From: Nevskiales bacterium
Lineage (GTDB): Bacteria > Pseudomonadota > Gammaproteobacteria > Nevskiales > JBOICV01
DNA: 64,000 bases
Assembly (NCBI GenBank): GCA_050740255.1
Contig: JBOICV010000150.1
Location: 22,048-86,047, forward strand
Direction of reading: 5' to 3'
The notes beneath the pieces were generated by a model. The model was given only the letters and a program-made list of their open reading frames with translations, did not search any database and was not told the DNA's origin. Below are positions 45,760 to 62,842 of the stretch, piece by piece. Position 1 is the first letter of the stretch, and each line of letters starts with the position of its first letter. Position numbers and translations under genes: made by a program.

Positions 45760-45785
45760 CGAGGTTGCCTCATTCTGCTGTATGT

Positions 45786-45812
45786 TGATTGATATATATC
45801 GAATATGATTGA
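45786..45812. promoter_or_regulatory. Candidate operator in the AT-rich rha divergent promoter
   Basis: Direct repeats TGATTGA at 45786-45792 and 45806-45812, 20 bp apart, flank the perfect palindrome GATATATATC (45791-45800). Confidence 0.3.
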
Positions 45813-45871
45813 ATTATGCTAGTCTTTTTGCCACAATCTGACAAATTGGCTCGCCGTGAAGGACGCGTGAA

Positions 45872-47992
45872 ATGAATCAGGTGCTTGAATCCCCGGCGGC
45901 GGCACGCGCTTCATCCGCCTCGCTGTTCCAGGTACCCGACACTCGCTGGTCGGACGCCGAGGCGCAAGCCAAGTCACCCGCCGAACTTCTGCTCTACCGT
46001 TCCAAGCTGCTCGGCGCGGATCTCACGGTCACTAACTTCGGCGGCGGCAACACCTCCGCCAAACTGGAAGCGGCCGATCCGCTCACCGCCGCGACGGTCA
46101 AGGTGCTTTGGGTGAAGGGCTCCGGCGGCGACCTCGGCTCGATGAAGCTCGATGGCTTTGCCACGCTCTACTTCGACAAGCTCCTGGACCTGGAGAAACT
46201 CTATCGCGGTGTCGAGCGCGAAGATGAAATGGCCGGCTTCCTGCCGCACTGCAGCTTCAACCTGAATCCGCGCGCGGCCTCGATTGACACACCACTGCAT
46301 GCCTTTCTCCCCTTCGCGCAGGTTGATCACCTGCACCCGGACGCGGTGACCGCGCTGGCGGCGTCAAGCAACGGCGAGGCCATCACCGCCGAGGTCTATG
46401 GCGGAACAGTCGGCTGGATGCCGTGGCAGCGTCCCGGCTTCGATCTCGGCTTGCGCCTGCGCGAGTACGTCTCGGCGAGGCCCGGCCTGCGCGGTGTCGT
46501 GATGGCCGGCCATGGCCTGATTTGCTGGGGCGACACTTCCAGGAGCTGCTACGAAAACTCGATCAACATCATCGCCGCCGCCGCACGCTACCTGAACCAG
46601 CGTCTTGCGACGGGTCCTGCATTCGGCGGGACTGCCGTGTCACCACAGCCACCCGAACTACGGCTGCGCATTGCGGCGGAGCTGATGCCGCGGCTGCGCG
46701 CAATGATGAGCAGCGAGCGTCCCAAGGTCGGCCATTTCAGCGATGCGCGCGAGTCGCTGGAGTTCGCTTGCAGTCGTGATTTCCGCAAGCTCGCGGCAAT
46801 CGGCACTTCCTGTCCCGATCATTTCCTGCGCACGAAGATCGCGCCGCTGGCGCTTGACCCCGCGCGCGTTGACGACGGGGCTTACCTGCAACAGGCGATC
46901 AGCGATTACCGTCTCGCGTACGCGGCCTACTACCGGCGCTGCGCCAAGCCCGGCGATCCGCCGATGCGCGACGCCAATCCGGTGATCGTGATGCTGCCCG
47001 GGGTCGGCCGCTTCAGCTTCGCTGCCGACAAGACCACGGCGCGCTTGGCGGGAGAGTTCTACGGCAATGCGATCAACGTGATGCGAGGTGCAGGCGCGAT
47101 CGGCGAGTACATCGGGCTCGACGAGCGCGAAGCCTTCGGCATCGAGTACTGGGCGCTGGAAGAGGCCAAGCTGCGCCGCCTGCCCAAAGCCAGATCACTG
47201 GCTGGCCGGATCGCGCTCATCACCGGCGCGGCGGGAGGCATCGGTTCCGCGACGGCCGCGCGCATGCTGGTGGAAGGCGCCTGCGTCATGCTGACCGACC
47301 GCGACGCCGCCGCGCTCGAACAGGCGCGCGCGCGCTTCGCCGCGCAGTTCGGCCACGATGTTGTGCGCGCCATCCCGTGCGACGTCACCAACGAAGGCGA
47401 CGTTACAGCCGCCTTCTCCCGATGCGCGCTTGAATTCGGGGGCTTGGACTTTCTGGTCGCCAATGCGGGCCTCGCGTCTTCAGCACCGATCGAGCAGACC
47501 ACGACTGCCATGTGGAAACTTAACTACGACGTGCTGGCCGCAGGCTATTTTCTGAGCGCGCGGGCGGCATTCCCGCTGCTCAAGCGTCAGGGCGGATCGA
47601 TCGTGTTCATCGGCTCCAAGAACGCGCTGGCGGCGACACCGAATGCCTCGGCTTACGCATCGGCCAAAGCCGCTGCCGTGCACCTCGCGCGCTGCCTCGC
47701 CCTGGAAGGCGCCCCCAGCGGCATCCGGGTGAATGTCGTCAACCCCGACGCGGTGATCCGCGGTTCGCGCATCTGGGACGGCAGTTGGCGCCAGCAGCGC
47801 GCGCAAGCGCACGGGGTAGATTCCGGCGAGGCGCTGGAGCAGCACTACCGCGCGCGCAGCCTTCTAAATCGCGACGTGCTCCCGGAGGACGTTGCGGAAG
47901 CGGTGCTGTTCTTTATTTCCGATGCTTCGGCGAAATCGACCGGCAACATCATCAACGTTGACGCCGGCAATGCTCAGGCGTTTTCACGCTAG
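45872..47992 (+). CDS. rhaEW: Bifunctional rhamnulose-1-phosphate aldolase / lactaldehyde dehydrogenase (RhaEW type: class II aldolase domain plus SDR domain)
   Basis: 706 aa. C-terminal SDR with TGAAGGIGSA and YASAKAA. Large N-terminal aldolase/adducin-like domain. Adjacent to rhaI. Confidence 0.88.
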   Translation: MNQVLESPAAARASSASLFQVPDTRWSDAEAQAKSPAELLLYRSKLLGADLTVTNFGGGNTSAKLEAADPLTAATVKVLWVKGSGGDLGSMKLDGFATLYFDKLLDLEKLYRGVEREDEMAGFLPHCSFNLNPRAASIDTPLHAFLPFAQVDHLHPDAVTALAASSNGEAITAEVYGGTVGWMPWQRPGFDLGLRLREYVSARPGLRGVVMAGHGLICWGDTSRSCYENSINIIAAAARYLNQRLATGPAFGGTAVSPQPPELRLRIAAELMPRLRAMMSSERPKVGHFSDARESLEFACSRDFRKLAAIGTSCPDHFLRTKIAPLALDPARVDDGAYLQQAISDYRLAYAAYYRRCAKPGDPPMRDANPVIVMLPGVGRFSFAADKTTARLAGEFYGNAINVMRGAGAIGEYIGLDEREAFGIEYWALEEAKLRRLPKARSLAGRIALITGAAGGIGSATAARMLVEGACVMLTDRDAAALEQARARFAAQFGHDVVRAIPCDVTNEGDVTAAFSRCALEFGGLDFLVANAGLASSAPIEQTTTAMWKLNYDVLAAGYFLSARAAFPLLKRQGGSIVFIGSKNALAATPNASAYASAKAAAVHLARCLALEGAPSGIRVNVVNPDAVIRGSRIWDGSWRQQRAQAHGVDSGEALEQHYRARSLLNRDVLPEDVAEAVLFFISDASAKSTGNIINVDAGNAQAFSR

Positions 47993-48001
47993 GGGAGCAG
48001 A

Positions 48002-49300
48002 ATGAGCGTTGCCGACCTACCCATCGAAGCTGACTTCATTGGCCAGCACAACGCTGGGCGGCTCAATGCTCTGCAGGACGATTACGAGAGCCTCGGCCGC
48101 GTGTTGAATCGTCGCGGCCTCGCGATCGACGCGATCAAGCGGCGCGCGGCGACTCTGGAGCTGGCGCAGCCCACCTGGGGCGTCGGCGTCGGCGGCACCC
48201 GCTTCGCTCGCTTCCCCATTCCGGGGGAGCCGAACGGTATTGATGAAAAACTGGAAGACTGCGCCGTCGTCCATCAACTGTGCCGAATTACGCCCGGCGT
48301 GTCGCCGCATTTTCCATGGGACAAGGTCGGTGATTCCAGTGCGCTTCGAGATCGCGCGCGCAATCTGGGCCTGCATTTCGACGCCGTGAACTCGAACACC
48401 TTCCAGGATGTGCCCGGTCAGCCGCTCAGTTACCGCCATGGCTCGCTTACCCATACCGACCCGGCGGTGCGGGCGCAGGCCATCGAGCACAACATCGAGT
48501 GCATCCGCATTGGCGAAGCACTGGGGTCGCAGGCGATCACCGTCTGGATTGGCGACGGCAGCAACTTCCCGGGACAGCAGTCGCTCGCGGATTCGCTGGA
48601 CCGCTACCTCGAGTCGGCAGCCCGGATCTACGCGGCGCTGCCCGGCGACTGGCGCATGCTGCTGGAGCACAAGCTCTACGAGCCCGCCTTCTATTCGACC
48701 GTGATCTCGGACTGGGGCACCAGCATCCTCGCAGCGCAGCAGCTCGGGCCGAAGGCGCAGTGTCTGGTGGACCTCGGCCACCATGCACCGAGCGTCAACA
48801 TCGAACAGATCGTCGCACGCCTGCATCGCTTCGGAAAACTCGGCGGCTTTCACTTCAACGACTCGAAGTACGGCGACGACGACCTCGATTCCGGCTCAAT
48901 CAACCCGCACCAGTTATTCCTCGTCTTCAACGAACTGGTGGAAGCCGAGAAACGCTCTCCTCAAGACTTCAAGCCGGCCTACATGATTGATCAGTCGCAC
49001 AACATCACCGATCCGATCGAAAGCCTGCTCTCCAGCGCCGAAGCGATCGCCGGGGCTTTCGTGCGTGCCTTGCTGGTGGATCGCGAAGCGCTGGCCGAAT
49101 ACCAGCGCAACAACGACGTGATGATGGCGTTCCAGACGCTGCGCCGCGCCTACAACCTTGACGTCGCGCCAATCCTGGCGATGGCTCGCCACGAGGCCGG
49201 TGGCGCAATAGATCCCATCGCTGCCTACCGCGAGTCCGGTTGGCGCCAGCGCAAGGCCCGCGAACGCCGCCCGGTCACAGCGGGCAGCGGGATCGTATGA
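48002..49300 (+). CDS. rhaI: L-rhamnose isomerase (Pseudomonas stutzeri-type RhaI, xylose-isomerase-like TIM barrel)
   Basis: 432 aa, with size and context of the RhaI type that partners RhaEW. Motifs HFNDSKYGDDDLD and DQSHN. Confidence 0.85.
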   Translation: MSVADLPIEADFIGQHNAGRLNALQDDYESLGRVLNRRGLAIDAIKRRAATLELAQPTWGVGVGGTRFARFPIPGEPNGIDEKLEDCAVVHQLCRITPGVSPHFPWDKVGDSSALRDRARNLGLHFDAVNSNTFQDVPGQPLSYRHGSLTHTDPAVRAQAIEHNIECIRIGEALGSQAITVWIGDGSNFPGQQSLADSLDRYLESAARIYAALPGDWRMLLEHKLYEPAFYSTVISDWGTSILAAQQLGPKAQCLVDLGHHAPSVNIEQIVARLHRFGKLGGFHFNDSKYGDDDLDSGSINPHQLFLVFNELVEAEKRSPQDFKPAYMIDQSHNITDPIESLLSSAEAIAGAFVRALLVDREALAEYQRNNDVMMAFQTLRRAYNLDVAPILAMARHEAGGAIDPIAAYRESGWRQRKARERRPVTAGSGIV

Positions 49301-49350
49301 ACGGCGGGCGAACTCGCGGGAAATGACCAGCAGCTCAAGGAGGAGAATCC

Positions 49351-51999
49351 ATGACGCGGAAGTCATTGGTCATTGCGCTGTTGTGGGCAGTGGCTAGCCG
49401 CCCCTTGCTGGCCCAGGACGAGACGACCCCGGAGCCCGACACGCCGGCCCCGGAGTCGGCATCGGCGATAGCCAAACCCGACGGTGACGGAGCGCCGGCA
49501 ACAACCGACAGCGCCACGCCGCCATCGTCAGCCGAGGGCGACACTGCGCCGACGACGAACCGCGGCGCTAGCGCAGCCGCGGCCGTCGGACTAGAAGAAC
49601 TCGACGCCATCCTGGCCGAAGAGCCGGCCGATCCTGCGACCGCTGCCGCCGCCCAGGGTGACGGAGCGCCGGCAACAACCGACAACGCCACGCCACCATC
49701 TTCAGCCGAGGGCGGCACAGCGCCGACGACGAGCAGCACCAAAAGAGCACCCGTGACCGTAGGACTGGAAGAGATCATCGTCACCGCCACCAAGCGCGAA
49801 AAGTCGCTGCGCGATATTCCGGCATCGATCCGCGCGTTTGACGGCCGTGATCTTGAAGCCAAGGCGATTCTCAGCATCAATGAGGTGCTCGAAACGACTC
49901 CCGGCGTCACCTCCAACTCGATTCGACCGGGGGATCAACGCATCATCATGCGCGGCATCTCCACGACGGCATCAGCAACAACCACGGCGCCTTTTCCGGT
50001 GGGTATCTTCATCGGCGATACGGCCCTCAATGAGCCCTACGCCGCGAGCATCACGCCGGACTTGAGTGCCTTCGACCTCGCCGGCGTCGAGATCCTGAAA
50101 GGGCCGCAAGGTACCCTGTTCGGCGGCGCCGCGCTCACCGGCGCGATCCGCTATCGCCTCAACGAGCCGATTCCGGACGCCTGGCAGCTTCGCGCATTCT
50201 CCCAGTACACGGATCTCAAGGAGGGCAGCACCGCGCTGACTAACGGCGTCGCAGTCAACGTGCCGATTGCAGTGAACGAAGGCGGTCTTGGCCTGCGACT
50301 GGTCTATATTGACCGGGAATATCCCGGTGTTTACGACGATTTGCGTCCGGAGCAGGCGGCCCAGGATGTGGACCAGGGCCGTGGCGAGCAGATCCGCGTC
50401 GGCGCGCTGTGGCGGCCATCGGACCGGTGGCATCTCAAATTTACCTACCTGGATCAGGATTACGCGGCGGACAATGGGCTGGTTCTCGCCGACGAACGAC
50501 AAGGCCCCCGCGAGACGCGGGTCTCCTTGCTGCCATGGCCAAACCGTCACCAGTTTGGTTTGTACAACCTCGAGTTTCAGTACGACTTCGACAGCATGCG
50601 GCTGGTGTCGTCCACCTCACGCACAGAGAAGGAGCGGCACAATATCATCGATACCCTGGGCACCCTGCTCGGTACTCCGCCGCCGGGCACGCCGGACAGT
50701 CTGGCGCTGCCGTTCATTACCGACCAGGATTCCACCTCATTCTCCCAGGAGCTGAGATTGCAGTCGCTGGGATCCGGGGGGCTGGAGTGGCTGATCGGCG
50801 GCTACTACTATCGGGCGCCGATCAATTACGCGCTGGTCCTCAATTTGCAACTTCTGCAAGACCTTGGCAGATTGGCCGGCGACGTCAGCCAGTTACTCGC
50901 CGGTCTTAATCAAACTCTTACCAATCTTGCCGGGCCCGGCAATCCGCTGAGCCAGTTGATCGCCCTGCTGTCACCGACGTTAGGGCAGCTCCCCTGCGAG
51001 CTTGCCGTGCTATGTGCCGAGACGCGGGCCAAGGCGCGGGAGGATGCCCTGTTCTTCGACCTCTCGTACAGCTTTTGGGATCGCCTCGAGCTTTCCGCGG
51101 GAGCGCGCTTCTACCGCACTGCCGTCGATGGCGGCTTCATCGGACGTGGGGTTGCCGCACGACTTATCGGCAACGGCATGTCGCCGGTGGACGTGCGCAG
51201 TTCGCTCACGGAGGAAGGAGTCAACCCGAAGCTGTCGGCGACTTATCGCTTCACCGAGTCAGTTTCGCTCTACGCGCTGGCCAGCCGGGGCTTCCGCTTT
51301 GGCGGGATCCAGAACATCCCACCGGACGAGGCACAGAACGTGCCGGCGACGTTCAAGTCGGACTCCCTGTGGAACTACGAACTGGGCCTGCGCACCGCCT
51401 GGTTCGGGAATACGATGCATTTCGACATCACCAGGTTCCACATCGACTACAAGGATCCGCAGGTTCAGTTGCAAAACCTCGTGCGGTTGAACTACTACGA
51501 TAATGTCGGCGCCGCCGTCAGCGATGGTGTCGAAGCAAGCTTCGAGTGGCTGACACCGATTCCGGGCATTGCACTTTCCGCCAGCGGTGGCGTCGTGGAC
51601 GCTCATACCACAGAACCGTTCCTGGCCGGCCAGACCCCAGTGCCGGCGGGCGTCGGGCTGCCGGGGTCGGCTGAAAAGCAGTACAGCGGCCAGATTTCCT
51701 ATTTCTGGCCTTTCGGCGGGCCACTGACCTTCGGCGCGGCGATCAGCTATGCCTATGTCGGCAAGACCGCGGGCGCCCTGCAGGTTCCCGCGACCTTGAA
51801 CGACTACGGAATCTACAGTGCCAATATGCAGGTCGGTTCCGCCAACTGGCCGGGAAAGCCCTCGCTCACGCTGAGCGTCACGAATCTGACCGATGTGACG
51901 GCACCCATCGGTGGGCTGGGCTCCCTAGCAGGGGACACCTTCTTCATTCTCAATCCGCCACGGACGATTACCGCCCGCTTCAGCCTGGAGTTCGAATGA
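49351..51999 (+). CDS. TonB-dependent outer-membrane receptor with repeat-containing N-terminal extension
   Basis: AGGAGG RBS and a signal peptide. A ~117-aa P/A/T/E-rich extension, then plug start VGLEEIIVTATKRE. GPQGTLFG motif and a long barrel. Confidence 0.9.
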   Translation: MTRKSLVIALLWAVASRPLLAQDETTPEPDTPAPESASAIAKPDGDGAPATTDSATPPSSAEGDTAPTTNRGASAAAAVGLEELDAILAEEPADPATAAAAQGDGAPATTDNATPPSSAEGGTAPTTSSTKRAPVTVGLEEIIVTATKREKSLRDIPASIRAFDGRDLEAKAILSINEVLETTPGVTSNSIRPGDQRIIMRGISTTASATTTAPFPVGIFIGDTALNEPYAASITPDLSAFDLAGVEILKGPQGTLFGGAALTGAIRYRLNEPIPDAWQLRAFSQYTDLKEGSTALTNGVAVNVPIAVNEGGLGLRLVYIDREYPGVYDDLRPEQAAQDVDQGRGEQIRVGALWRPSDRWHLKFTYLDQDYAADNGLVLADERQGPRETRVSLLPWPNRHQFGLYNLEFQYDFDSMRLVSSTSRTEKERHNIIDTLGTLLGTPPPGTPDSLALPFITDQDSTSFSQELRLQSLGSGGLEWLIGGYYYRAPINYALVLNLQLLQDLGRLAGDVSQLLAGLNQTLTNLAGPGNPLSQLIALLSPTLGQLPCELAVLCAETRAKAREDALFFDLSYSFWDRLELSAGARFYRTAVDGGFIGRGVAARLIGNGMSPVDVRSSLTEEGVNPKLSATYRFTESVSLYALASRGFRFGGIQNIPPDEAQNVPATFKSDSLWNYELGLRTAWFGNTMHFDITRFHIDYKDPQVQLQNLVRLNYYDNVGAAVSDGVEASFEWLTPIPGIALSASGGVVDAHTTEPFLAGQTPVPAGVGLPGSAEKQYSGQISYFWPFGGPLTFGAAISYAYVGKTAGALQVPATLNDYGIYSANMQVGSANWPGKPSLTLSVTNLTDVTAPIGGLGSLAGDTFFILNPPRTITARFSLEFE
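49414..49764 (+). repeat. Coding tandem repeat (2 units of ~56 aa) forming the TBDT N-terminal cassette
   Basis: The unit GDGAPATTD[SN]ATPPSSAEG..APTT...VGLEE occurs twice. About 90% nucleotide identity (by eye) to the inverted copy at 58593-58770. Confidence 0.85.
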
Positions 52000-53537
52000 A
52001 CCGGCTCCTGCGCGTCATCCCGCTGGCGATCCTGCTTCCCTTCTGTGCTGATGCGCAACAGGTAGATCTGAACTCCGGCGCGCTGGAAGGTGAGCGGCTC
52101 GGTCAGGTCGAGCGCTATCTCGGAATACCCTACGCGGCGCCTCCCGTTGGCGAGCTGCGCTGGCGGGCGCCGCGACCGGTCGATGCCTGGATCGGCGTGC
52201 GCAAGGCGACGGCGCCCGGCCCAGCCTGCACGCAGATCGGCGGTTTGTACGCCAGCAACGATCCAGCGACCTTCGACCGCCCTTACGGCTCGGAAGATTG
52301 CCTGTACCTCAACGTGTGGACGCCGGCCGAGCGCCAGGGTCCGCGGCCGGTGCTGTTCTTCATCCACGGCGGCTCCGGAGTCGCGGGCGACTCGGCGTTC
52401 CCCATTTACGACGGCGCGCGGCTTGCAGCCGAAAACCAGATCGTCGTGGTGACCGTCAATTACCGCCTCGGTGTGCTGGGTTCGCTGCATCTGCCTGCAC
52501 TGAAAACCGGCGTGGCCGCCGAGGATTCCGGCAACTACTTCCTGCTCGATCTGATCCAGGCGCTGGACTGGGTGCAGGCCAACATCGCTGCGTTCGGCGG
52601 CGATCCGCGCAACGTCACCATCGCCGGCCATTCAGCCGGAGCGGGCAGCGTCCTCGCATTGCTGCGCTCGCCGCTGGCGCCGGGCAAATTCCAGCGCGCC
52701 ATCAGCTATTCGGGCCTGCCGTTCTCGTCTTCCCCCGACCAGGCGCGCGAGCACAGCGAGGCGCTGCTCGAAGCCCTGATGCGGCAGGATGGCTCGATCC
52801 GCGGAGCCGAGGCGCTGGCGCAACGTGTGCAGGAAATCGGCGAGGCCGGACTGCGCCACTATCTCCTGGGAAAGAGTGGCGCACAACTGGTCGAGGCCGG
52901 AAGAGGCCTCCCCCCCGGAGGGGGCTACCTTGCCGACGGCACCGTCCTTCCGCAAAACCCCCAGCCCGACGAGTTGCCTGTGGAAGTCAGCAGCCCTGTG
53001 CCACTGATGATCGGTACCGTCCGTGACGAAATCTCACTGCTCGCGCTGACTCCCAAGCTCAGCCCGGCGCAGCGCTGGGAGTTGCTCAGCGGTGAGACCG
53101 CCACCGCGACGACCTCTGCGTATGAATTGCTCGGGTTTTGGAAACACCTGGGCTATCGTGTGTCCCGATTCTTCGGCGAGTGCATTCTCGACCACAAGAT
53201 CGAGGGGCTGTATGACCGGCTGGCACCCAAGCTGCCCGCTTTGTATGTCTATACCTTCGATTGGGATGCGTTCCCGCAACCATGGCGCGGGCAGTTCGGC
53301 GCCTTCCACGGACTGGATGTGCCATTCGTCTTCGGCAATTTCATCGTCGATCAACCCAGCTTCGCGCGCTTTGCGTGGACCGCTGAAAACGCCGGCGCGC
53401 GCGAAGCCTTGCACCGGCGCATGGCGGCCGCGCTTCGCGGCTTCGTGGAATCCGGCAACCCCAATGCGCACGTGACGCCGAACCATCCGGCCTGGGCGAC
53501 CTGGGATGCGCGCCGCGCGCAACAAGTCTGGAACTGA
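51996..53537 (+). CDS. Secreted type-B carboxylesterase/lipase
   Basis: ATGA overlap with the TBDT stop. Signal peptide. Oxyanion FIHGGS. Nucleophile GHSAGA. Confidence 0.9.
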   Translation: MNRLLRVIPLAILLPFCADAQQVDLNSGALEGERLGQVERYLGIPYAAPPVGELRWRAPRPVDAWIGVRKATAPGPACTQIGGLYASNDPATFDRPYGSEDCLYLNVWTPAERQGPRPVLFFIHGGSGVAGDSAFPIYDGARLAAENQIVVVTVNYRLGVLGSLHLPALKTGVAAEDSGNYFLLDLIQALDWVQANIAAFGGDPRNVTIAGHSAGAGSVLALLRSPLAPGKFQRAISYSGLPFSSSPDQAREHSEALLEALMRQDGSIRGAEALAQRVQEIGEAGLRHYLLGKSGAQLVEAGRGLPPGGGYLADGTVLPQNPQPDELPVEVSSPVPLMIGTVRDEISLLALTPKLSPAQRWELLSGETATATTSAYELLGFWKHLGYRVSRFFGECILDHKIEGLYDRLAPKLPALYVYTFDWDAFPQPWRGQFGAFHGLDVPFVFGNFIVDQPSFARFAWTAENAGAREALHRRMAAALRGFVESGNPNAHVTPNHPAWATWDARRAQQVWN

Positions 53538-53667
53538 AAGCCTGGTGATTTCCTTCCGGCGTGCTACCGCGAAACCGCTTGGCGTACCCGCAAGGCGCGT
53601 GAGCGCCGCGCTACGACGATCGGCTTCAATAAACTAACGGCTAATCCAACTTTTGAAGGTTGAACCG

Positions 53668-54696
53668 ATGACCAAGCTGCTGGTCGCCGATATTGGCGGC
53701 ACGAATGCGCGCTTCGCAGTGATCGACTGCGCAGATTCACGCCAGCCCGGTTCCTGCGAAGAGGTCCGCAACTTCAGTTGCGCCGAGTTCACCGATTTCG
53801 AGGCACTACTGGACGCGTATCTGGCGGGCCTGAGCCATCGGCCCCGCTATGCAAGCCTGGGCGTGGCGGGACCGGTTGCTAAGGGCATATGCCGGCTGAC
53901 GAATGCCGGCTTGACCGTTGATGCGGGCAAGCTTGCACGACGTTTCGACTTCTCCGAGGTGACGCTCATCAATGATCTCGCAGCGGTCGCGGCCGCTGTG
54001 GTCCACCTGAGTCCGCACGAGCGAACGACGCTGCAGCGAGGTGACGCGGCGGCGACCGGCCCTATCAGCGTCGTCGGTGTCGGGACGGGCTTTGGCGCTG
54101 CGCTGCTGGTGAGGGATGAAGCGACCTGGACCGTTGCCGCGACGGAGGCCGGCCATCAAAGCTTCAGCCCGGTCGACGAATTGGAAATCGAGATCCTGCG
54201 TCTGTTGTCACGCGAACATGGGCACGTCTCGGTCGAGTTCCTGCTGTCGGGGCCGGGCATTTCCCGGCTGCATGTCGCTTTGTCGCGGATTTATGGGGAA
54301 CCGGTGGAGGATATCTCTCCCGAAGAAATCTGCAGCGGCGCAAGGGCTGAAGTGGCCCGCTGCGCACGAACGCTATCGTTATTCTTCTCCATGCTCGGCG
54401 GCGTGTCGGGAGACATCGCGTTGACGCATGGAGCAACCGGAGGCTTATATCTTGGCAGCGGTATAGTGGTGCCGAATACTTCCGCGCTCTTGCAGAGCCA
54501 GTTTGTACGGCGCTTCTCCGCCAAAGGCCCGATGTCGTCTTACATGCAGAACATCCCCATTCACATCTTCGTCTCCGATCAAGCTGCACTTAAAGGAGCG
54601 GCGAACTGGTTTGTGAAAACGAGACTCGGCAAGAAAGACGCGACCATTAACGCCCCCGGCGTTGGCAACCAACACGCATGTTCGGGGACCAAGTGA
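53668..54696 (+). CDS. glk: Glucokinase
   Basis: LLVADIGGTNARFA N-terminal ATP motif, about 340 aa. ATG at 53668 is preferred over TTG at 53653. Confidence 0.88.
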   Translation: MTKLLVADIGGTNARFAVIDCADSRQPGSCEEVRNFSCAEFTDFEALLDAYLAGLSHRPRYASLGVAGPVAKGICRLTNAGLTVDAGKLARRFDFSEVTLINDLAAVAAAVVHLSPHERTTLQRGDAAATGPISVVGVGTGFGAALLVRDEATWTVAATEAGHQSFSPVDELEIEILRLLSREHGHVSVEFLLSGPGISRLHVALSRIYGEPVEDISPEEICSGARAEVARCARTLSLFFSMLGGVSGDIALTHGATGGLYLGSGIVVPNTSALLQSQFVRRFSAKGPMSSYMQNIPIHIFVSDQAALKGAANWFVKTRLGKKDATINAPGVGNQHACSGTK

Positions 54697-54697
54697 G

Positions 54698-56317
54698 TCA
54701 GTCGTCTTGCAAGCCGTGACGGCCTGAATCGCGCAGCGCCAGGGTCCCGATCACCAGCGTCACCGCGGCGACGACGATGGGATACCACAGGCCGGCATAA
54801 ATGTTGCCGTAGGCCGCCACCATCGCCGTGGCCAGCAGGGGCAGCATGCCGCCGAACCAGCCGTTGCCGATGTGGTAGGGCAGCGACATCGAGGTGTAGC
54901 GGATCCGGGTCGGGAACAGCTCCACCAGGAAAGCAGCGATGGGGCCGTAGACCATGGTCACATAGAGCACCAGCAGCACCAGCAGTCCCAGCGCGCCGGC
55001 ATAGTTGATCCGTGCCGGATCGGCCGCGGCCGGGTAGCCGGTGTCGGCCAGCGCCGCTTTCAGCCCGGTTTCGTCCCAGCCTTCGATGGTATGGCTGCCG
55101 ATGGTCGTCACCACGCTCATACCTGGCACTGCCGGCACCGAGGTAAAAGACAGGCCCGACTTGGTCAGGAAGTCCGTGGCGCGGTCGCAGTCGCTGAACC
55201 GGGTGTTGGGGCCGACAAAGATGTGGAAGTTGCAATCGCTCGCCGCCATTTGCAAGTGCGTGTTGACCTGGTACTGCGCCAATGCCGGGTTCACGAAATG
55301 CGTCAGGCCGTGGAAGATCGGGAGGTAGCTTGCCGCCGCCAGGAGACACCCGGCCATGATGATTTTCAGGCGACCGATCTTGTCCGACAGCCACCCGAAG
55401 AAGACGAAGAACGGCGTGGCGATCAGCAAAGACGCGCCGATCAGCAGGTAGGCGCTGAGGAAGTCCAGCTTGAGCGTGATGGTGAGGAAGAACAGCGCGT
55501 AGAACTGGCCCGTATACCAGACCACGCCCTGGCCGGCGGTGGCGCCCAGCAGCGCCAGCAGCACGTACTTGTTGTTCGGGTAGCGCAGGAAGCTGTCGGT
55601 CAGCGGCGACTTCGAGCCGCGCCCTTCCGCCTTCATCGCCTGGAACAGCGGCGATTCATTGAGCTTGAGGCGGATGTAGACCGAAAAGATCAGCAGGATG
55701 ATTGACAGCAGGAACGGGATGCGCCATCCCCAACTGGCGAATTGCGCCGGCTCCAGGGTGACGCGGGCGATGCCGATGACCAGCAGGGACAGGAAGAAAC
55801 CGGCCGTCGCGGTGGTCTGGATCCAACTGGTCGCGTAGCCGCGTTGGTCATCCGGCGCGTGCTCGGCGACGTAGGTCGCGGCGCCGCCGTACTCGCCACC
55901 CAGGGCCAGGCCCTGCAACAGGCGCAGCGTCACCAGGATGACGGGCGCGGCAAAGCCGATGGTTTCGTAGGTCGGCAGGAAGCCGACCGCGGCGGTGGAC
56001 CCGCCCATGACCACGATGGTGATGAGGAAGCTGTACTTGCGCCCGACCAGGTCGCCGATGCGCCCGAACACCAGCGCACCGAACGGCCGCACCAGGAAGC
56101 CGGCGGCGTAGGTGGCGAACGCGGACAGCAAGGCCGCGGTCTCGTTGCCCTTGGGAAAGAACAGCGCGGCGAAGAACGGCGCCAGCGTGGCGTAGAGGTA
56201 GAAGTCGTACCACTCGAACACGGTGCCGAGCGAGGAGGCAACGATGACCCGGCGCTGCTCAGCCCGGCTGACGCTCGCCCCGGCGCCCACGTAGCCGGAC
56301 GGTCCTCGGGAAGTCAC
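54698..56317 (-). CDS. MFS transporter, metabolite:H+ symporter (MHS) family, with ~100-aa insertion between TM9 and TM10
   Basis: FEWYDFYLY, GRIGDLVGRK and LQGLALGGEYGGA motifs. The extra soluble segment spans residues ~340-438. Confidence 0.88.
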   Translation of the reverse strand: MTSRGPSGYVGAGASVSRAEQRRVIVASSLGTVFEWYDFYLYATLAPFFAALFFPKGNETAALLSAFATYAAGFLVRPFGALVFGRIGDLVGRKYSFLITIVVMGGSTAAVGFLPTYETIGFAAPVILVTLRLLQGLALGGEYGGAATYVAEHAPDDQRGYATSWIQTTATAGFFLSLLVIGIARVTLEPAQFASWGWRIPFLLSIILLIFSVYIRLKLNESPLFQAMKAEGRGSKSPLTDSFLRYPNNKYVLLALLGATAGQGVVWYTGQFYALFFLTITLKLDFLSAYLLIGASLLIATPFFVFFGWLSDKIGRLKIIMAGCLLAAASYLPIFHGLTHFVNPALAQYQVNTHLQMAASDCNFHIFVGPNTRFSDCDRATDFLTKSGLSFTSVPAVPGMSVVTTIGSHTIEGWDETGLKAALADTGYPAAADPARINYAGALGLLVLLVLYVTMVYGPIAAFLVELFPTRIRYTSMSLPYHIGNGWFGGMLPLLATAMVAAYGNIYAGLWYPIVVAAVTLVIGTLALRDSGRHGLQDD

Positions 56318-56432
56318 CGGGAGGTATCACGCAGCTTCCAGAGACCCGCCATCGCCTCCAGGCTTCGGCCCATGTCGGGCACAAGGCGCCAAACCAGAAT
56401 GGTGGCAAGCGGGATGCGCCGCATGGCATGGC

Positions 56433-59162
56433 TCAGAAATAAAAGCTGAAGCGCAGGGCAGCGGAGCGCGGCCGCAGAAAGGCGCCCAGGTCACCGGTGG
56501 GGATATTTAAGAGACGGCGGGTACCACCACCGAGCAGCGCCTGCTCGTTGGTCAGGTTGGTGACGTAAAACGAGAGTTCTGGTGAGAGCTTCCATTGCGG
56601 CGCGCTCAGTTTGACACCGGCGTCAAGGGTATTGAAGCCGAAGATGAGCAGGTCATGCTCGACGTTGTTGAACGCCTCACCGATATGGGCGTAAGTCAGA
56701 TTCACGCCCCCGACCAGTGAACCGAAGTTCCTGGTGTAGGCCAGCGTGGTGGCCGTCTGCAGGCGCGGCGCCGCCGGCAGCTCGGTGCCGACCGGAATCT
56801 CGACCCCGTCGGCGGTCGTGTACGGCTCCTCGATGGTGGCCCGAATATACGCGGCCGTGTTGATCAGCGTGAGGCCCGGGATCGGCGTCAGCCAGCGCAA
56901 GCTGCTTTCCACGCCCTGGCTGACTGACCCACTGATATTGTCGGTGAAATCGGTATTGCCGCTGGGCGTGCTCTGCGAAAGCTGCCTGTCGGTCCAGTCA
57001 ATGTGGAAGGCTGTAAGGTCGAGCTGAAGGGTGTTGTCGAACCAGTCGGTACGCACACCCAGCTCGTAACTCCAGAGCGTGCTGGGCTTAAAAGTCGGCG
57101 GAAAGACGTTATCGGATGGGAGGGGCGCCGGAGCATTGAAGCCGCCGAACTGAAAGCCGCGCGCGGCATTCGCGTACAGCAGGATGTCGTCAGTCCACTG
57201 GAATTTGACCGCCGCCTTGGGACTGAAGCCTTTTTCCTCCAGCTTCTTTACGCCGGTGAAACCACTGTTTGCGGCCAACAGTCCAGTCAGGCCGCGGCTC
57301 GTAATGTTGGCCTGCAGCTTCTCCTGGTACAAGCGGCCTCCGAGAGTGAGCTCCAGCCGGTCGTCGAAGAACTTGCGCGTCAGTTCGCCGAACAGCGACT
57401 CTTCCCGCGCTTCCGACGGGTCGAAGCGGACGAATATTACCGAAAGTCCCTCGGGGGTCGGCGTCAGCTGCGACTGGAGTTCCGGGGGCAGATTGAGCGC
57501 GTCGAAAAGTTGCGCGAGTATCGCCGTGTTCGCGAGGAATGTGTTGAGCTCCAGCACTGCCGAGTAGCGGCTGTAGTAGAGGCCGCCAAGCCAGACCCAG
57601 GGACTATCGCTGGGGGCGGACACCAGCCGCAGTTCCTGCGAAATCGCATCGGTATCGATGCGCGTGTGCAGCCGCAGCGACTCGATGCCGGCGACAGCGA
57701 GCGGCTCGACTATCGAGCTTAAGTCGAAGTCGGTGTCGTTGAGTTTCTTGGCGCGCGAAGTTTCCGAAATGAGCGAGGCCCAGTCGAAATCGTAACTCAC
57801 CTCCAGATTGGCCACATCGAATTTCTGGCGCGAAGTGCTGGGCCCTGGCGTGTTGGTGCGAACGAACTCGAAGTCCAGATTGTTGGCGACGCTGAGATCG
57901 CCGCGAAAATTCTCCTGCTGGAGGTAGAAGGCAGTGATCTTCAGCGCATCGGTGGGTTTCCAGAGACCCAACACGCGAGACATCTGCTTGTCACCCTCGT
58001 CGGCGTCCTTTTGATTCTTGCCGTTGGCATTGACATCGTCGTACAGTCCGGGCAGCTCCTGCGAGACTGCGGCGGCCCGTAGAGCGGCCTCCTCGCCCAG
58101 CGGTATATTGACCGCCGCGCCCCAAGTCACCCCTTCCCCGCCTTGCTCCACCGTGAGCCGGTTGACGAAGCCTTTGGCGTCCAGGGTGCTGAGCTGCGGC
58201 TTGGTCAGCACGTAGCGGATCGCGCCGTTGAGCGCGCCGGCGCCGAACAAGGTGCCCTGCGGCCCCTTGAGCACTTCCACGGTCTGCAGGTCGAAGGGAT
58301 CGAGGTCGGGCACCAGATAGCTCGCGACGGGATCGCCCATCGAGACATTGTCAATCAGGACGCCGGTGGTGATGTTCCCGCCCGACTGCGGGCCGACACC
58401 ACGCACGGCCAGCGATCGGCTGCCGTTTAAACCCTCCTGCAGCGTGATGCCGGGGACGAGCCGGAGGTAGTCCTGCATTTCGCGCGCGTCGATTGCTTCC
58501 AGGTCCTCGCCCGAAAGCACGTTCACCGTGGCTGCGATCTCGCGCACCGATACCTCGCGCTTGGTGGCGGTGACGATGATCTCTTCCAGTCCGACGGTCA
58601 CGGGTGCTTTTTTGGTGCTGGTCGTCGCCGGCGCAGCGTCGCCCTCGGCTGACGATGGCGGCGTGGTGCTGTCGGTTGTTGCCGGCGCTCCTTCACCCTG
58701 GGCGGCGGAAACGGTCGCAGGATCGGCCGGCTCTTCGGCCAGGATGTCGTCGAGTTCTTCCAGACCGGCGGCCGCGGCTGCGCTATCGCTGCGGTTCGTC
58801 GCCGGCGCAGCGTCGCCCTCGGCTGACGATGGCGGCGTGGCGCTGTCGGTTTCTGCCGGCGCTCCTTCACCCTGGGCGGCGGAAGCTGTCGCAGGATCAG
58901 CCGGCTCTTCGGCCAGGATGTCGTCGATCTCGTCCCGCCCGACTGGTGCGCTATTGCTACTGTTCGTCGGCGGCGTAGTGGCGCCCTCGGCTGACGATGG
59001 CGGCGTGACGCTGTCGGTTGTTGCCGGCGCTCCTTCACCCTGGGCGGCGGGAGCTGTCGCAGGATCGGCCGGCTCTTCGGCCAGCGCGAGCCGGTGGGCA
59101 CCCGACGCATACAAGGTCACACCCAGGACAGCGACCAGCAAACGTCCTCTTGAATATTCCAT
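56433..59162 (-). CDS. TonB-dependent outer-membrane receptor with repeat-containing N-terminal extension (3 units)
   Basis: Signal peptide. A 160-aa extension, then VGLEEIIVTATKRE plug start. GPQGTLFG. C-terminal LRFSFYF. Confidence 0.9.
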   Translation of the reverse strand: MEYSRGRLLVAVLGVTLYASGAHRLALAEEPADPATAPAAQGEGAPATTDSVTPPSSAEGATTPPTNSSNSAPVGRDEIDDILAEEPADPATASAAQGEGAPAETDSATPPSSAEGDAAPATNRSDSAAAAAGLEELDDILAEEPADPATVSAAQGEGAPATTDSTTPPSSAEGDAAPATTSTKKAPVTVGLEEIIVTATKREVSVREIAATVNVLSGEDLEAIDAREMQDYLRLVPGITLQEGLNGSRSLAVRGVGPQSGGNITTGVLIDNVSMGDPVASYLVPDLDPFDLQTVEVLKGPQGTLFGAGALNGAIRYVLTKPQLSTLDAKGFVNRLTVEQGGEGVTWGAAVNIPLGEEAALRAAAVSQELPGLYDDVNANGKNQKDADEGDKQMSRVLGLWKPTDALKITAFYLQQENFRGDLSVANNLDFEFVRTNTPGPSTSRQKFDVANLEVSYDFDWASLISETSRAKKLNDTDFDLSSIVEPLAVAGIESLRLHTRIDTDAISQELRLVSAPSDSPWVWLGGLYYSRYSAVLELNTFLANTAILAQLFDALNLPPELQSQLTPTPEGLSVIFVRFDPSEAREESLFGELTRKFFDDRLELTLGGRLYQEKLQANITSRGLTGLLAANSGFTGVKKLEEKGFSPKAAVKFQWTDDILLYANAARGFQFGGFNAPAPLPSDNVFPPTFKPSTLWSYELGVRTDWFDNTLQLDLTAFHIDWTDRQLSQSTPSGNTDFTDNISGSVSQGVESSLRWLTPIPGLTLINTAAYIRATIEEPYTTADGVEIPVGTELPAAPRLQTATTLAYTRNFGSLVGGVNLTYAHIGEAFNNVEHDLLIFGFNTLDAGVKLSAPQWKLSPELSFYVTNLTNEQALLGGGTRRLLNIPTGDLGAFLRPRSAALRFSFYF
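58593..59078 (-). repeat. Coding tandem repeat (3 units of 56-58 aa) forming the TBDT N-terminal cassette
   Basis: EEPADPAT..AAQGEGAPATTDS.TPPSSAEG..AP.T....(G[LR][ED]E[LI]DDILA) occurs three times (residues 29, 85 and 143). Confidence 0.9.
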
Positions 59163-59241: not shown

Positions 59242-60516
59242 TCAGTGCACATAAGGCTGAGCGGGGTGTCGCGCGTGCCAGCCGAAGCCGGCGATCACCG
59301 CGTAGCAGGCCGCCGGCACGATCAATGCTCCGGCAATGCTGCTGGCATCGGCGACCGCACCCGCCAGCAGCGGCACGATCGCGCCGCCGACAATCGCCAT
59401 GCACAGCAAGCCGGAGGCGCGCGGGGTTTCCACGCCCATGCGCTCGACGGCGAGACTGAAGATGGTCGGAAACATGATGGCGTTCATCAGGCCGACCGCA
59501 ATCAGCGACCAGGCGGCGAGCGGGCCCTGCGAAACTGCGGACAGCGCTGCGAGCGTCGCCGCGCCGATGGCAACCGCCGCGAGCAGGCGCCCCGCCGCGA
59601 TGCGGCGCAGCAACCAGGCGCCGATAAAACGCCCCACCAGCGCACCGCCCCAATACAGCGAGATGTACTCGCCGGCGCTGCGCTCGGCCAAGCCCAGCGT
59701 CGCCGGCAGCATCAGATAGTTGACCAGGAAGCTGCCGATCGTGACCTCGGCGCCGACGTAAAGAAAGATCGCGGCGACGCCAAACGCCAGGCGCGTACGA
59801 CGGCGCAGCAGCGCCAGGCTGCCGGCGAGTGTAGCCGCAGGCCGCCCGCCGCCAAGTTGGCCGCCGAGATGATCGCGCCACAGCCAGAACAGGCCCGCGA
59901 TCGCCAGCAGCACCAGCGACAGACCCAGATAGCCGTGGCCTACGACCGCCGCCTCGCGTGCCTGGAACTCGGCCAGCGCCGCTCCGGAGAGGCTCGCGGA
60001 ATCGACGTCCGCAATCCCCCCGAGAATCAACTGCGCGCCGAGGAACGGCATCACCGTGGTGCCGAGCGAGTTGAACGCCTGCGCCAGCGTCAGGCGGCTG
60101 TGCGAGGTGTCGGGCGTGCCGAGGTTCGCGATCAGCGGATTGGCTGCGACCTGCAGGATCGTGATGCCCCCGGCGAGGATGAACAGCGCTCCGAGAAACA
60201 GCGCATAGCTCGCCGTGGACGCCGCCGGCACGAACAGCAGGCAGCCCAAGCCCATGATGGAGAGCCCGGCCACGATCCCGCGTCCGTAACCGAGCCGCGC
60301 CACCAGTCCGCCCGCCGGCAGCGACACCACGGCGTAGGCGGTGAAGAACGCGAACTGGATCAGCATCGCCTGCGCGTAGCTGAGCCGGAACAGGTCTTTC
60401 AGCTTCGGGATCAGCACGTCGTTGAGGCTGGTGATCCCGCCCCAGATGAAGAACAGCGCCACGACGCCGGCCAGCAGCAATGCCGGCGCTTGACGGCCTG
60501 CCTGACTAGAACTCAT
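59242..60516 (-). CDS. MFS sugar transporter (glucose/galactose GluP / FucP family)
   Basis: FFIWGGITSLNDVLIPKLKDLF N-terminal signature of the GluP/FucP family. 12 TM helices. Confidence 0.88.
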   Translation of the reverse strand: MSSSQAGRQAPALLLAGVVALFFIWGGITSLNDVLIPKLKDLFRLSYAQAMLIQFAFFTAYAVVSLPAGGLVARLGYGRGIVAGLSIMGLGCLLFVPAASTASYALFLGALFILAGGITILQVAANPLIANLGTPDTSHSRLTLAQAFNSLGTTVMPFLGAQLILGGIADVDSASLSGAALAEFQAREAAVVGHGYLGLSLVLLAIAGLFWLWRDHLGGQLGGGRPAATLAGSLALLRRRTRLAFGVAAIFLYVGAEVTIGSFLVNYLMLPATLGLAERSAGEYISLYWGGALVGRFIGAWLLRRIAAGRLLAAVAIGAATLAALSAVSQGPLAAWSLIAVGLMNAIMFPTIFSLAVERMGVETPRASGLLCMAIVGGAIVPLLAGAVADASSIAGALIVPAACYAVIAGFGWHARHPAQPYVH

Positions 60517-60652: not shown

Positions 60653-62842
60653 TCAAGGCTTGAGCCGTTGCTCGCCGAGCGTCACGGTGACGACCGGCCC
60701 CAGATCCTCGGCAGATTTCCCAAGCGCGAATGCGTAATCCCCGGCCTTGATCAGCCAGCCATCGTCATTCCAGTCCGCGATCAGCCGCGGATCAACCTTG
60801 AGTGCCACTTCACGGCTCTTACCGGGCTTGAGCGTCACGCGCTCGAATCCCGCGAGGCGCTGGAGCGGACGACCCGCTGCGCTGACGAGATACAGCTGCG
60901 GAACATCCGCACCGTCGCGCTCGCCGACGTTTTTCACCTTGAAGCTCGCGCTGACGACGTCGCCGCCATTCACTTTCAATCCGCTATAACTGAACTCCGT
61001 GTAACTCAGGCCGTGTCCGAAGGGGAACAGGGCTTTTAGTTTTTCCGCTGCGAACCAGCGATAACCGATATCGGAGCCCTCGCTGTAATCGACCGCCTGC
61101 GGCTTGGCCTGCATGGAATCGGGTTCGCCGAGGCCGCGCAGCTGCGGCCGCGGGTTCTGCTCGAGCGACAACGGGAACGTGATCGGCAAGCGTCCCGACG
61201 GATTCACGGCACCGGTCAGCACGTCCGCGATGGCGTTGCCGCCCTTCTGGCCCGGATACCAGGCCTCGATCACGGCTTTCACGTCGGCGAGCCAGGGCAT
61301 TGCAACCGGGTTGCCGGTCTCGAGCACGACGATGGTGTTCTTGTTGGCCTTGGCGACCGCAGCGATCAGCTCGTCCTGGCCGAGCGGCAGGTCGAGGCTG
61401 GTCGAATCCCAGCCCTCGCTCTCGAACTTCGTCGCGAACACGATGGCGACGTCGGCGCGCGCGGCGCGCGCGGCAGAGAACCCCGCGTCGTAGCCCGGAT
61501 CGAACGAGATCGCGTGTTGCGGCAGGTTCTCTTTGAGCGCGGCGACCGGCGACGACGGCACAATCATCTGTCCGGTCGGGCGCTTCACCAGGCGATGCAC
61601 GTCGGTCGGGATGATCGCGGCGGCACCGCCGACCGGCGTTACCTGACTCGAGCCGCCGCCGGCGATCACCCCGGCTATCGCATAGCCGCCGATGACGAGG
61701 ATGGACTTCGCGTCGTTCTCCAGCGGCAGCGCGCCGTCGTTCTTCAGCAGCACGATGCCGGCGGCGGCGGCTTCCCGCGCGATTTCGGCGTTTGCCGCAT
61801 AGTCAATTTTGGCAATCTTGCGCTTCTGCGGTTTCCAGTCCGCACCCACGGCGTAGATCGAACGCAGGATTCGGCGCACCGCATCCGACAGCCGCGCCTT
61901 GGATACGCGTCCGGCGGCGTATTCCGCTTTGAGTGGGGCGTCCAGCCACACTTGCTGGTCGAGCTCGGCCCCAGAGTGCTGGTCAAGGCCGGCGTTGAAA
62001 TATCCGACCTCGTGCACCGCGCCCCAGTCCGACATCACCCAGCCCTTGTAGCCCCAGTCGCCCTTCAGCACCTGGTTCAGCAGGAAGTCGCTGCCGCAGG
62101 ACCACGGGCCGTTGACACGGTTGTAGGCGCACATCACCGCGCCGGGCTGTCCGCGCTCGATACCGATCTGGAACGCCAGCAGGTCGGACTCGCGCAGGGC
62201 CGCTTCTTCGATTCTCGCATTGAGCACGCGGCGCAGCGTCTCCTGGTCGTTCATCGCAAGGTGCTTGATGGTCGCGATGACGCCGGCGCTCTGAATGCCG
62301 CGGCTCGCCTCGCCGCCGAGCACGCCCGCGAGCAGCGGGTCCTCGCCGAGGTATTCAAAGTTACGGCCATTGCGCGGATCGCGTGCGAGATTGACCCCCG
62401 GGCCCAGCAGGACGTTGAAGCCCTTGGCGCGCGCCTCGCCGGCAATCATCGCGCCTGCCTTGAACGCAAGCGCCGGATCGAAGCTCGCCGCGAGCGCCAG
62501 CCCGGAAGGCAGGGCCGTCGCAACGTCGCCCTCGCGCAGCTCGAAGGGATTGACCACACCCAGGCTCGCGTCCGTTTCCACGAGACCGGGAATGCCGAGC
62601 CGCGGAATGCCGCGCATGACGCCCGGGGCGATCGGCATGTTCGGGATCAGGCGAGAGGGCTTGCCGGCTTCAATCGTTATCGGCAAATGGGTGTGCAGCA
62701 TGTGGAAGCGCTCGTCGTCCGTCATCTGCGCCTCCACCGCCGCCGCGCGGGCGTCGGGGTCAAGTTTTTCCGCCGCCGTGGCGACGCCGGCAAGCAACAA
62801 GAGTGAGGTAACGAAAGCGCAGCGTGACATGGCGTTCTCCAT
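60653..62842 (-). CDS. Periplasmic/secreted GH3 beta-glucosidase
   Basis: Signal peptide. GH3 motifs GPGVNLARDPRNGRNFEYLGEDP and KGWVMSDWGA (nucleophile Asp). C-terminal FnIII-like domain. Confidence 0.93.
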   Translation of the reverse strand: MENAMSRCAFVTSLLLLAGVATAAEKLDPDARAAAVEAQMTDDERFHMLHTHLPITIEAGKPSRLIPNMPIAPGVMRGIPRLGIPGLVETDASLGVVNPFELREGDVATALPSGLALAASFDPALAFKAGAMIAGEARAKGFNVLLGPGVNLARDPRNGRNFEYLGEDPLLAGVLGGEASRGIQSAGVIATIKHLAMNDQETLRRVLNARIEEAALRESDLLAFQIGIERGQPGAVMCAYNRVNGPWSCGSDFLLNQVLKGDWGYKGWVMSDWGAVHEVGYFNAGLDQHSGAELDQQVWLDAPLKAEYAAGRVSKARLSDAVRRILRSIYAVGADWKPQKRKIAKIDYAANAEIAREAAAAGIVLLKNDGALPLENDAKSILVIGGYAIAGVIAGGGSSQVTPVGGAAAIIPTDVHRLVKRPTGQMIVPSSPVAALKENLPQHAISFDPGYDAGFSAARAARADVAIVFATKFESEGWDSTSLDLPLGQDELIAAVAKANKNTIVVLETGNPVAMPWLADVKAVIEAWYPGQKGGNAIADVLTGAVNPSGRLPITFPLSLEQNPRPQLRGLGEPDSMQAKPQAVDYSEGSDIGYRWFAAEKLKALFPFGHGLSYTEFSYSGLKVNGGDVVSASFKVKNVGERDGADVPQLYLVSAAGRPLQRLAGFERVTLKPGKSREVALKVDPRLIADWNDDGWLIKAGDYAFALGKSAEDLGPVVTVTLGEQRLKP

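Follow-up and report, generated by a model that had tools for sequence, protein, structure and literature searches.

Probable interlocus gene conversion of a repeated N-terminal tail among three TonB-dependent transporters of a Nevskiales bacterium

How did two TonB-dependent transporters (TBDTs) with strongly diverged bodies come to carry nearly the same repeated segment ahead of their TonB boxes? The question is raised by a 64,000-nucleotide stretch of a draft genome of a Nevskiales bacterium (GenBank assembly GCA_050740255.1, contig JBOICV010000150.1, positions 22,048 to 86,047). We refer to this whole stretch as the window, and positions given below are positions in it unless another sequence is named. 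TonB-dependent transport is known mainly from E. coli-type receptors, in which only a few residues separate the TonB box and the mature N-terminus. In the two TBDTs of the window, an acidic module of 56-58 amino acids that is rich in Pro, Ala, Thr and Ser lies downstream of the signal peptide and ahead of the TonB box, with 1.75 units in TBDT-A (49351..51999, + strand, 882 amino acids) and three units in TBDT-B (56433..59162, - strand, 909 amino acids). We think it probable that this cassette, which is found on three TBDTs of this genome, is a disordered periplasmic tail with docking motifs that has been spread by interlocus gene conversion. The gene conversion is well supported; that the tail serves for docking is something we infer from its motifs.

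In TBDT-B, the signal peptide (MEYSRGRLLVAVLGVTLYASGAHRLALA, 59079..59162, with an inferred cleavage site) is followed by unit B1 (58911..59078, 56 amino acids, ending in GRDEIDDILA), unit B2 (58737..58910, 58 amino acids, ending in GLEELDDILA), and unit B3 (58581..58736), which continues into the TonB box GLEEIIVTATKRE at 58554..58592 (all on the - strand). In TBDT-A, all on the + strand, the signal peptide (MTRKSLVIALLWAVASRPLLA, 49351..49413) is followed by 23 residues of the gene's own extension (QDETTPEPDTPAPESASAIAKPD, 49414..49482), by the partial unit A1 (49483..49617), which is the positional counterpart of B2 and ends in GLEELDAILA, and by unit A2 (49618..49773), the counterpart of B3. 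The TonB box of A, with the same sequence as that of B, lies at 49762..49800. A repeat finder reported direct repeats of 174/168 nucleotides (nt) in three copies in B and of 174 nt in two copies in A. The inverted arms formed by the two genes (49478-49859 and 58495-58876) are 382 nt long, 86% complementary, and 8.6 kb apart.

Searching the whole genome (3.03 Mb in 189 contigs, 62% GC, 98.6% complete) with protein queries and with blastn revealed a third carrier, TBDT-C, on another contig (C113, 1-1373, - strand), where the gene is cut by the contig end. The cassette was found nowhere in the genome beyond these three TBDTs, save for one 43-nt match to the TonB box. TBDT-C is a paralogue of B (66% identical) and is only about 36-38% identical to A. 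The preliminary description of this DNA had counted two receptors, with two and three units. The three units of B stand, but the first unit of A is only partial, and there are three carriers rather than two. The units pair by position: B3, A2 and C2 are 92-94% identical (A2 has 92% nucleotide identity to B3 and 94% to C2), and B2, A1 and C1 are alike in their 3' parts only. Nearly all of the seven units retain the islands EEPADPAT, TPPSS.EG and GLEELD.IL, while the remainder is variable.

Gene conversion is supported by how sharply the cassette differs from the rest of these genes. The tract that is shared by A and B covers codons 45-149 of A (49483-49797), and 290 of its 315 nt are identical (92.1%). 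Across the aligned bodies, 1043 of 2067 nt are identical (50.5%, with 37% amino acid identity; Fisher p = 5e-51 for the tract versus the bodies). In a codon-aligned sliding window, the nucleotide identity is 0.89-0.91 within the cassette, or 0.87-0.93 at third positions, versus 0.43-0.61 in the remainder of the gene. By the method of Nei and Gojobori (NG86), the synonymous divergence (dS) within the tract is 0.085 for A-B, 0.125 for A-C, and 0.026 for B-C; in the bodies it is 1.38, 1.28, and 0.74, respectively. The preliminary description had proposed that the cassette was being homogenized by gene conversion, or had spread recently, independently of the receptor bodies, and it had judged the last units to be about 90% identical by eye. 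The computed identity of those units (92% for A versus B), the excess of identity in the cassettes over the bodies, the low dS of the tract (0.03-0.13 versus 0.74-1.38), and the orthologues without the cassette that are described below all bear this out.

The boundaries of the tract are discrete. Its 3' limit is the same in the three genes: identity with A collapses just past ...TATKRE. As a correction to the preliminary description, the tract therefore takes in the TonB box and stops at ...KRE. The TonB-box DNA is 97-100% identical among A, B and C (97% for A versus B), whereas the five further TBDTs of this class in the genome reach 64-79%. The 5' limits differ: the tract starts at codon 45 of A and near codon 67 of C. 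Also, the shared variants form a mosaic, with SSTKR in A and C and NRSDSA in B and C, so repeated exchange is probable. As is usual for interlocus conversion, the identity and dS of the tract are far from those of its flanks, and the paralogues are closer to each other within the tract than the orthologues are. The repeated tail was thus recently and non-reciprocally transferred between the three loci.

Orthologues and remnants of older extensions give the same picture. The closest orthologue of A is P0122, from a metagenome-assembled genome (NCBI GCA_973686405.1, locus L008). Its body is 81% identical to that of A at the amino acid level, and it has the same signal peptide and the same first 22 mature residues: the signal peptide of A aligns with that of P0122, and the 23 residues of A that precede the tract are colinear with residues 22-44 of P0122 and have no similarity to B or C. 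These residues are what is left of the original extension of the A lineage. The rest of the extension of P0122 is unrelated to A's, and its homology to A in blastn does not start until 49751, immediately ahead of the TonB box. Upstream of the tract in C, there is an unrelated stub of about 35 residues. The cassette is also lacking from the two closest orthologues of B (P0003, 71% identical, and P0005, 62% identical), although the mature N-terminus of P0005 (LAEEAVDPATAPATESEGTPA) is homologous, in both nucleotides and amino acids, to the start of unit B1. We also note that P0122 (L008:299-3037) has a 52-amino-acid tandem duplication of its own (PKEEAGTSSSTSSEQNSD and PKGEAGAKSSTSVEQDSD); the first unit carries a SDILSDLL motif and the second has a decayed copy of that motif.

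The cassette is specific to this strain: 40 genomes of the same order had no copy, and among 5.8 billion proteins in a word-indexed search, the only matches were A and B. A phmmer search of 1.84 billion representative proteins returned only the fragment of C and a 95-amino-acid fragment of A, which is from a second public assembly of the strain (GCA_050741775.1). The search for the cassette elsewhere that the preliminary description had called for thus led to another TBDT of the same genome but to none in the 40 genomes of the order.

We propose an origin of the array in the B lineage, through an in-frame tandem duplication, with a period of 174 nt, of the gene's own N-terminal extension. The join between units shares CTGGCCGAAGAG with the end of the signal peptide of B and also resembles the start of the TonB box, so the duplicated segment would have run from about the last two codons of the signal peptide to the first five codons of the TonB box. 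The preliminary description had placed the duplication boundary at the TonB box, and this is correct: the boundary overlaps the first five TonB-box codons, with GGT CTG GAA GAA CTC at the join matching GGA CTG GAA GAG ATC. The B lineage is the likely source of the array, which would then have been copied into C and A, because only B has complete units and because the N-terminus of P0005 is homologous to the start of unit B1. The 3' 1.5-1.75 units, along with the TonB box, would have been copied non-reciprocally into C (66% identical to B) and A (37%), where they would have replaced most of each gene's own extension. The conserved TonB-box codons may have provided the homology at the 3' end of the conversion. 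The three copies of the cassette are now within 6-8% of one another.

The second assembly (locus L012, contig JBOIFX010000001.1) is independent support for the 5' end of A. It is 99.98% identical to the window over 6.3 kb (43351-49634), and it covers the 5' end of A up to 49634, that is, the stub, unit A1, and the start of unit A2. Its contig ends inside unit A2, within the repeat, so the repeat breaks assemblies.

A and B clearly belong to the TBDT family. Both have Plug (PF07715) and TonB_dep_Rec_b-barrel (PF00593) matches above the Pfam cut-off (6.5e-13 and 9.7e-32, respectively, in A) and no further Pfam domain, and C has a Plug match (1.2e-20). In all three proteins, the predicted TonB site, GLEEI(I/V)VTATKRE, lies at the N-terminal edge of the plug and fits the TonB-box consensus of the clade (QLEEIVVTATKRE). 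Neither the STN domain (PF07660) nor the CarboxypepD_reg extension (PF13620/PF13715) had a Pfam match in A or B, and the region is predicted to be coil. STN is present in some relatives (P0009, P0038, and others). The cassette itself matched no Pfam family, and nothing in NCBIfam at E ≤ 1.

The whole cassette is predicted to be disordered. In an AlphaFold2 (AF2) model of TBDT-B (83-sequence alignment, predicted template modelling score 0.79), the plug and a 22-strand barrel start at about residue 190, with a predicted local distance difference test score (pLDDT) that is mostly above 90. Residues 1-188 have pLDDT below 50, and there is no secondary structure past the helix of the signal peptide. 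This is the disorder prediction that the preliminary description had suggested as a check.

Tails of this kind are common in related TBDTs. The relatives of both bodies are mostly from Nevskiales-type bacteria (Solimonas, Nevskiaceae, Stenotrophobium, Fontimonas, and Hydrocarboniphaga), and in nearly all of them 50-160 acidic residues that are rich in Ala, Pro, Ser and Thr follow the signal peptide and precede the TonB box (median 76). In the genome that contains the window, 8 of 10 TBDTs are of this class; all 8 of these have a tail, and 7 of the 8 have a motif that we call LDxLL. Among related extensions without STN, 45 of 189 contain the pattern [LIVMF]-D-x-[LIVMF]-[LIVMF], versus 3.1 expected from shuffled sequences (about 15-fold enrichment). 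The consensus of the motif is (D/E)xxLD(E/A/D)(L/I)(L/F), and its median position is 21% into the tail, usually near the mature N-terminus. Over the genes described here and a few hundred relatives, the disordered stretch ahead of the TonB box is 50-165 residues long, often with this conserved motif. Motif-bearing modules have also been duplicated in tandem, independently, in at least five other relatives. The motif and the long tail are restricted to this clade, because they are absent from the orthologues in Spongiibacter and Zhongshania, which have short tails and no LDxLL motif, and from two further genomes of the order, G001 and G003, that are discussed below.

In the cassette, the junction between units (GLEE-LDDIL-AEEPADP) is a good instance of LDxLL; compare QDDFLDELLAEPPPEE from the relative P0137. 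There is one LDxLL-type motif in A (LDAIL, 49600..49614, + strand), one in C, and two in B (IDDIL, 58914..58928, and LDDIL, 58740..58754, both on the - strand). The 20-mer AAAGLEELDDILAEEPADPA represents the motif-bearing peptide of the cassette. From these comparisons, the cassette is a strain-specific, multiplied form of the LDxLL tail seen in many related TBDTs. The preliminary description had allowed that the cassette might be a common and fixed feature of a TBDT subfamily. This is so for a disordered acidic extension in general, but the sequence and copy number of these extensions vary, and the cassette itself is seen in this strain only.

A second conserved element, (L)xTIPV or DSIPVQ, precedes the TonB box by 15-30 residues in very many relatives (P0003-P0240; L026, L039, and L040), including relatives without LDxLL. 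It has been lost from the genes with the cassette, which have KAPVTVGLEE instead. A TBDT of G001 (L025, G001:C1:657900-659010) has four copies of ELSAT between an IPV-type motif and the TonB box. Another TBDT of the genome that contains the window, with a 159-amino-acid leader (G000:C116:51274-51489), has AAEQSAET twice, as well as DFDALFGDE, in an unrelated extension.

How might such a tail work? Its place on the N-terminal side of the TonB box means that it carries no load when the plug is pulled by TonB, and it most likely hangs freely in the periplasm, like an "antenna." The junction between units would in each case present E-L-D-x-I-L-x-E-E-P, which is of the LDxLL type. We suspect that LDxLL is a short docking site whose periplasmic partner most plausibly belongs to the Ton machinery; candidate partners in this genome are about three TonB paralogues and a TolA-like protein. 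Duplication would then raise the valency and the reach of docking, and conversion would keep the three transporters matched to the same partner. We also considered whether short TonB linkers are offset by long receptor tails, but we dropped this idea as the TonB paralogues look ordinary. Another thought, which we also set aside, was that D-S-A/V/T sites and Ser/Pro-rich tracts are targets of PglL-type O-glycosylation; PglL_A had no match, and there are three generic Wzy_C proteins.

Could the three genes have come to share the cassette in some way other than conversion? They belong to one TBDT class and have the same TonB-box consensus, so the cassette might be ancestral to all of them and have been kept alike by purifying selection, without any transfer. 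This can hardly be right, as it is contradicted by the data: the synonymous divergence of the tract is 10-30 times below that of the bodies, identity at third positions is about 0.9, the orthologues of A and B do not have the cassette, and before the tract begins, A and C still have pieces of older extensions that differ between the two. It is also very unlikely that the cassette is a mobile in-frame element (similar to miniature inverted-repeat transposable elements or repetitive extragenic palindromic sequences, or derived from a phage) or an assembly chimera. In the whole genome, blastn found it only at the 5' ends of three TBDTs, always in the same frame and with the TonB box of the gene in question. 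It has no terminal inverted repeats, and each copy has private substitutions and unique flanks on both sides. A chimera might be suspected in a draft of 189 contigs, especially since the second assembly breaks in the repeat, but that assembly reproduces the A stub, unit A1, and the start of A2.

What the unit ends and the tail do is less certain. The preliminary description took the unit ends to be degenerate copies of the TonB box, and they might accordingly be several TonB-binding sites that tune the engagement of TonB. They do share G-L-E-E-[IL] with the start of the true TonB box, with 12-13 of 15 nt identical, and that much of the claim stands. However, only these first five residues are common: the strand-forming core IIVTATKR is replaced by DDILAEEP, without the alternating hydrophobic pattern of a TonB box. 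In B1, which ends in GRDEIDDIL, the GLEE is lost and the DDIL is kept. The conserved part of the junction (E-L-D-D/A-I-L-A/T-E-E-P) fits instead the clade-wide LDxLL motif, which occurs just once in relatives without duplications, usually near the mature N-terminus, far from the TonB box and with no relation to it. We therefore consider multiple TonB-binding sites to be unlikely. Another possibility, which we doubt but take more seriously, is that the tail is a neutral spacer of low complexity: repetitive GC-rich DNA next to the TonB-box codons would slip and convert easily, and neither the motif nor the copy number would matter. This would fit with a predicted structure that is pure coil, with extensions that cannot be aligned between orthologues, and with the Spongiibacter and Zhongshania orthologues and the TBDTs of G001 and G003, which do without long tails. 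It would not explain the enrichment of LDxLL over shuffled sequences or its preferred position, the conservation of the three islands in nearly all seven units, or why most members of the clade keep long tails. Several other observations weigh against a converted docking tail as we have proposed it. The dN/dS of the tract is about 1 or above (0.087/0.085 for A-B and 0.092/0.026 for B-C), which fits a weakly constrained spacer as well as a functional tail. The number of units rests on a draft of short-read type, and the second assembly breaks within the repeat. The direction of donation, from B into A and C, is based on the completeness of the units and on the N-terminus of one orthologue. AF2 shows no helix at the LDxLL motif and no docking of the motif onto the barrel. 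The 40 TBDT N-termini from G001 and G003 have short extensions and no LDxLL motif; only three of them match the pattern, and these matches are the TonB boxes themselves. The "DDI" of the junction could be a by-product of how the duplicated segments were joined rather than a selected motif. Even so, we believe that interlocus conversion of a disordered tail with docking motifs is the best explanation.

The disordered N-terminal regions of colicins and pyocins carry a TonB box or TolB box. The tail resembles these translocation domains in that a disordered N-terminal region with short epitopes captures Ton or Tol proteins (as in pyocin S2, PMC11658791), but the toxins thread a transporter, whereas here it is the transporter that bears the disordered region, and LDxLL does not belong to the known Ton or Tol boxes. 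The STN transducers (FecA, FpvA, and FoxA), too, have an additional periplasmic segment before the TonB box, which hangs below the barrel and reaches a periplasmic or inner-membrane partner by way of a flexible linker (PMC11658791). In our proteins, however, there is no folded STN domain, the segment is disordered and repeated, and the open reading frames (ORFs) that we examined include no adjacent genes for anti-sigma factors or extracytoplasmic function (ECF) sigma factors. The Oar/SusC-type transporters also have an N-terminal extension before the plug in a glycan-type TBDT; the extension of Oar is dispensable for its basic function (PMC6434023). The Pro-rich spacer of TonB (Glu-Pro / Lys-Pro) is another charged periplasmic segment of low complexity in the same transport system, but it is on the opposite partner, it bears load, and it does not contain a 58-amino-acid tandem array. 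As for the conversion, interlocus exchange and concerted evolution are known from bacterial paralogues (for example, PMC6053082). Outer-membrane protein families such as the Helicobacter bab genes similarly have tracts that are closer than the flanks or the orthologues, with discrete boundaries. The difference is that here the tract is only the tail and the TonB box, the bodies are just 37% identical, and the tract carries a tandem array.

We did not find a description of a disordered tail rich in Pro, Ala, Thr and Ser or of an LDxLL motif in TBDTs in full-text searches of the literature. A review mentions N-terminal extensions of TBDTs only as signalling domains (PMC11658791), and the survey of Gomez-Santos et al. 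2019 (PMC6434023) counts only the Pfam extensions CarboxypepD_reg, STN, and AMIN and places all other proteins under "no additional domain," which is where our tail would fall, unlike Oar/SusC-type extensions. Published domain surveys miss the tail and LDxLL because these are not Pfam domains.

Since the two cassettes of the window are inverted, the preliminary description had suggested that they could mediate inversion of the segment between them. The longest exact match between the inverted copies is 40 nt, and exact runs of 40 nt are enough for homologous recombination by RecA. A RecA-type inversion of 49.8-58.5 kb is therefore possible, judging from the sequence, and it would be in frame, so that the bodies would be swapped between promoters and signal peptides. 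In the present assembly, the signal peptide and 5' end of each gene are from the same lineage as its body, so there has been no net swap at present. The gene order does differ in related loci. In the window, A and B are convergent with genes for an esterase, a glucokinase, and a major facilitator superfamily (MFS) transporter between them. L008 has A and a B-like gene next to each other in convergent orientation, and in L009 (JGI 3300036851), GH3, MFS, A-like, B-like, and esterase genes lie in that order on one strand. We considered an inversion at the cassettes as the cause of these differences and rejected it for the present state, given that the 5' ends match their own bodies. The region has clearly been rearranged, but nothing links the rearrangement to the cassette. 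In the spacer between the esterase and glucokinase genes, we also noticed a 46-nt relic of the 3' end of a rhaI-like isomerase gene (53564-53609, 78% identical to 49225-49270), which reads YRETAWRTRKARERR versus YRESGWRQRKARERR and is a footprint of an old rearrangement or duplication.

The three genes between the cassettes encode a carboxylesterase (COesterase, 51996..53537, + strand, Pfam 1.3e-88), a glucokinase (53653..54696, + strand, Pfam 9e-89), and an MFS transporter (Sugar_tr/MFS_1 in Pfam, 54698..56317, - strand). Genes for rhamnose catabolism flank this region on A's side. On B's side, there is an MFS permease (MFS_1 in Pfam, 59242..60516, - strand) and, adjoining it, an ORF of 729 amino acids (60653..62842, - strand) that is the counterpart of the GH3 gene by its position and by synteny with L009 only. 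The surroundings of A and B are loci for the utilization of sugars or glycosides.

This locus is a clean case of conversion that acts on a tract of about 300 nt, smaller than a domain, between genes whose divergence elsewhere is too great for recombination, and the converted tract stops at codons of the TonB box that are conserved by selection. For annotators and assemblers, it means that the repeat breaks contigs and that a swap of transporter bodies between promoters is in principle possible through the inverted copies, which lie 8.6 kb from each other. More tentatively, we speculate that LDxLL is a hitherto unrecognized second "box" of a large clade of gammaproteobacterial (Nevskiales-type) glycan TBDTs that recruits a periplasmic component (such as a TonB paralogue, ExbD, or some other factor) earlier than, or together with, the engagement of the TonB box, and that this strain has multiplied the box and keeps it identical by conversion on three transporters that use one partner. 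We consider this possible rather than likely. If the motif is a docking site, then it would be a new and testable step in how transporters find the Ton motor, and the three genes with the cassette, with one, one, and two motifs, would be a natural experiment in valency.

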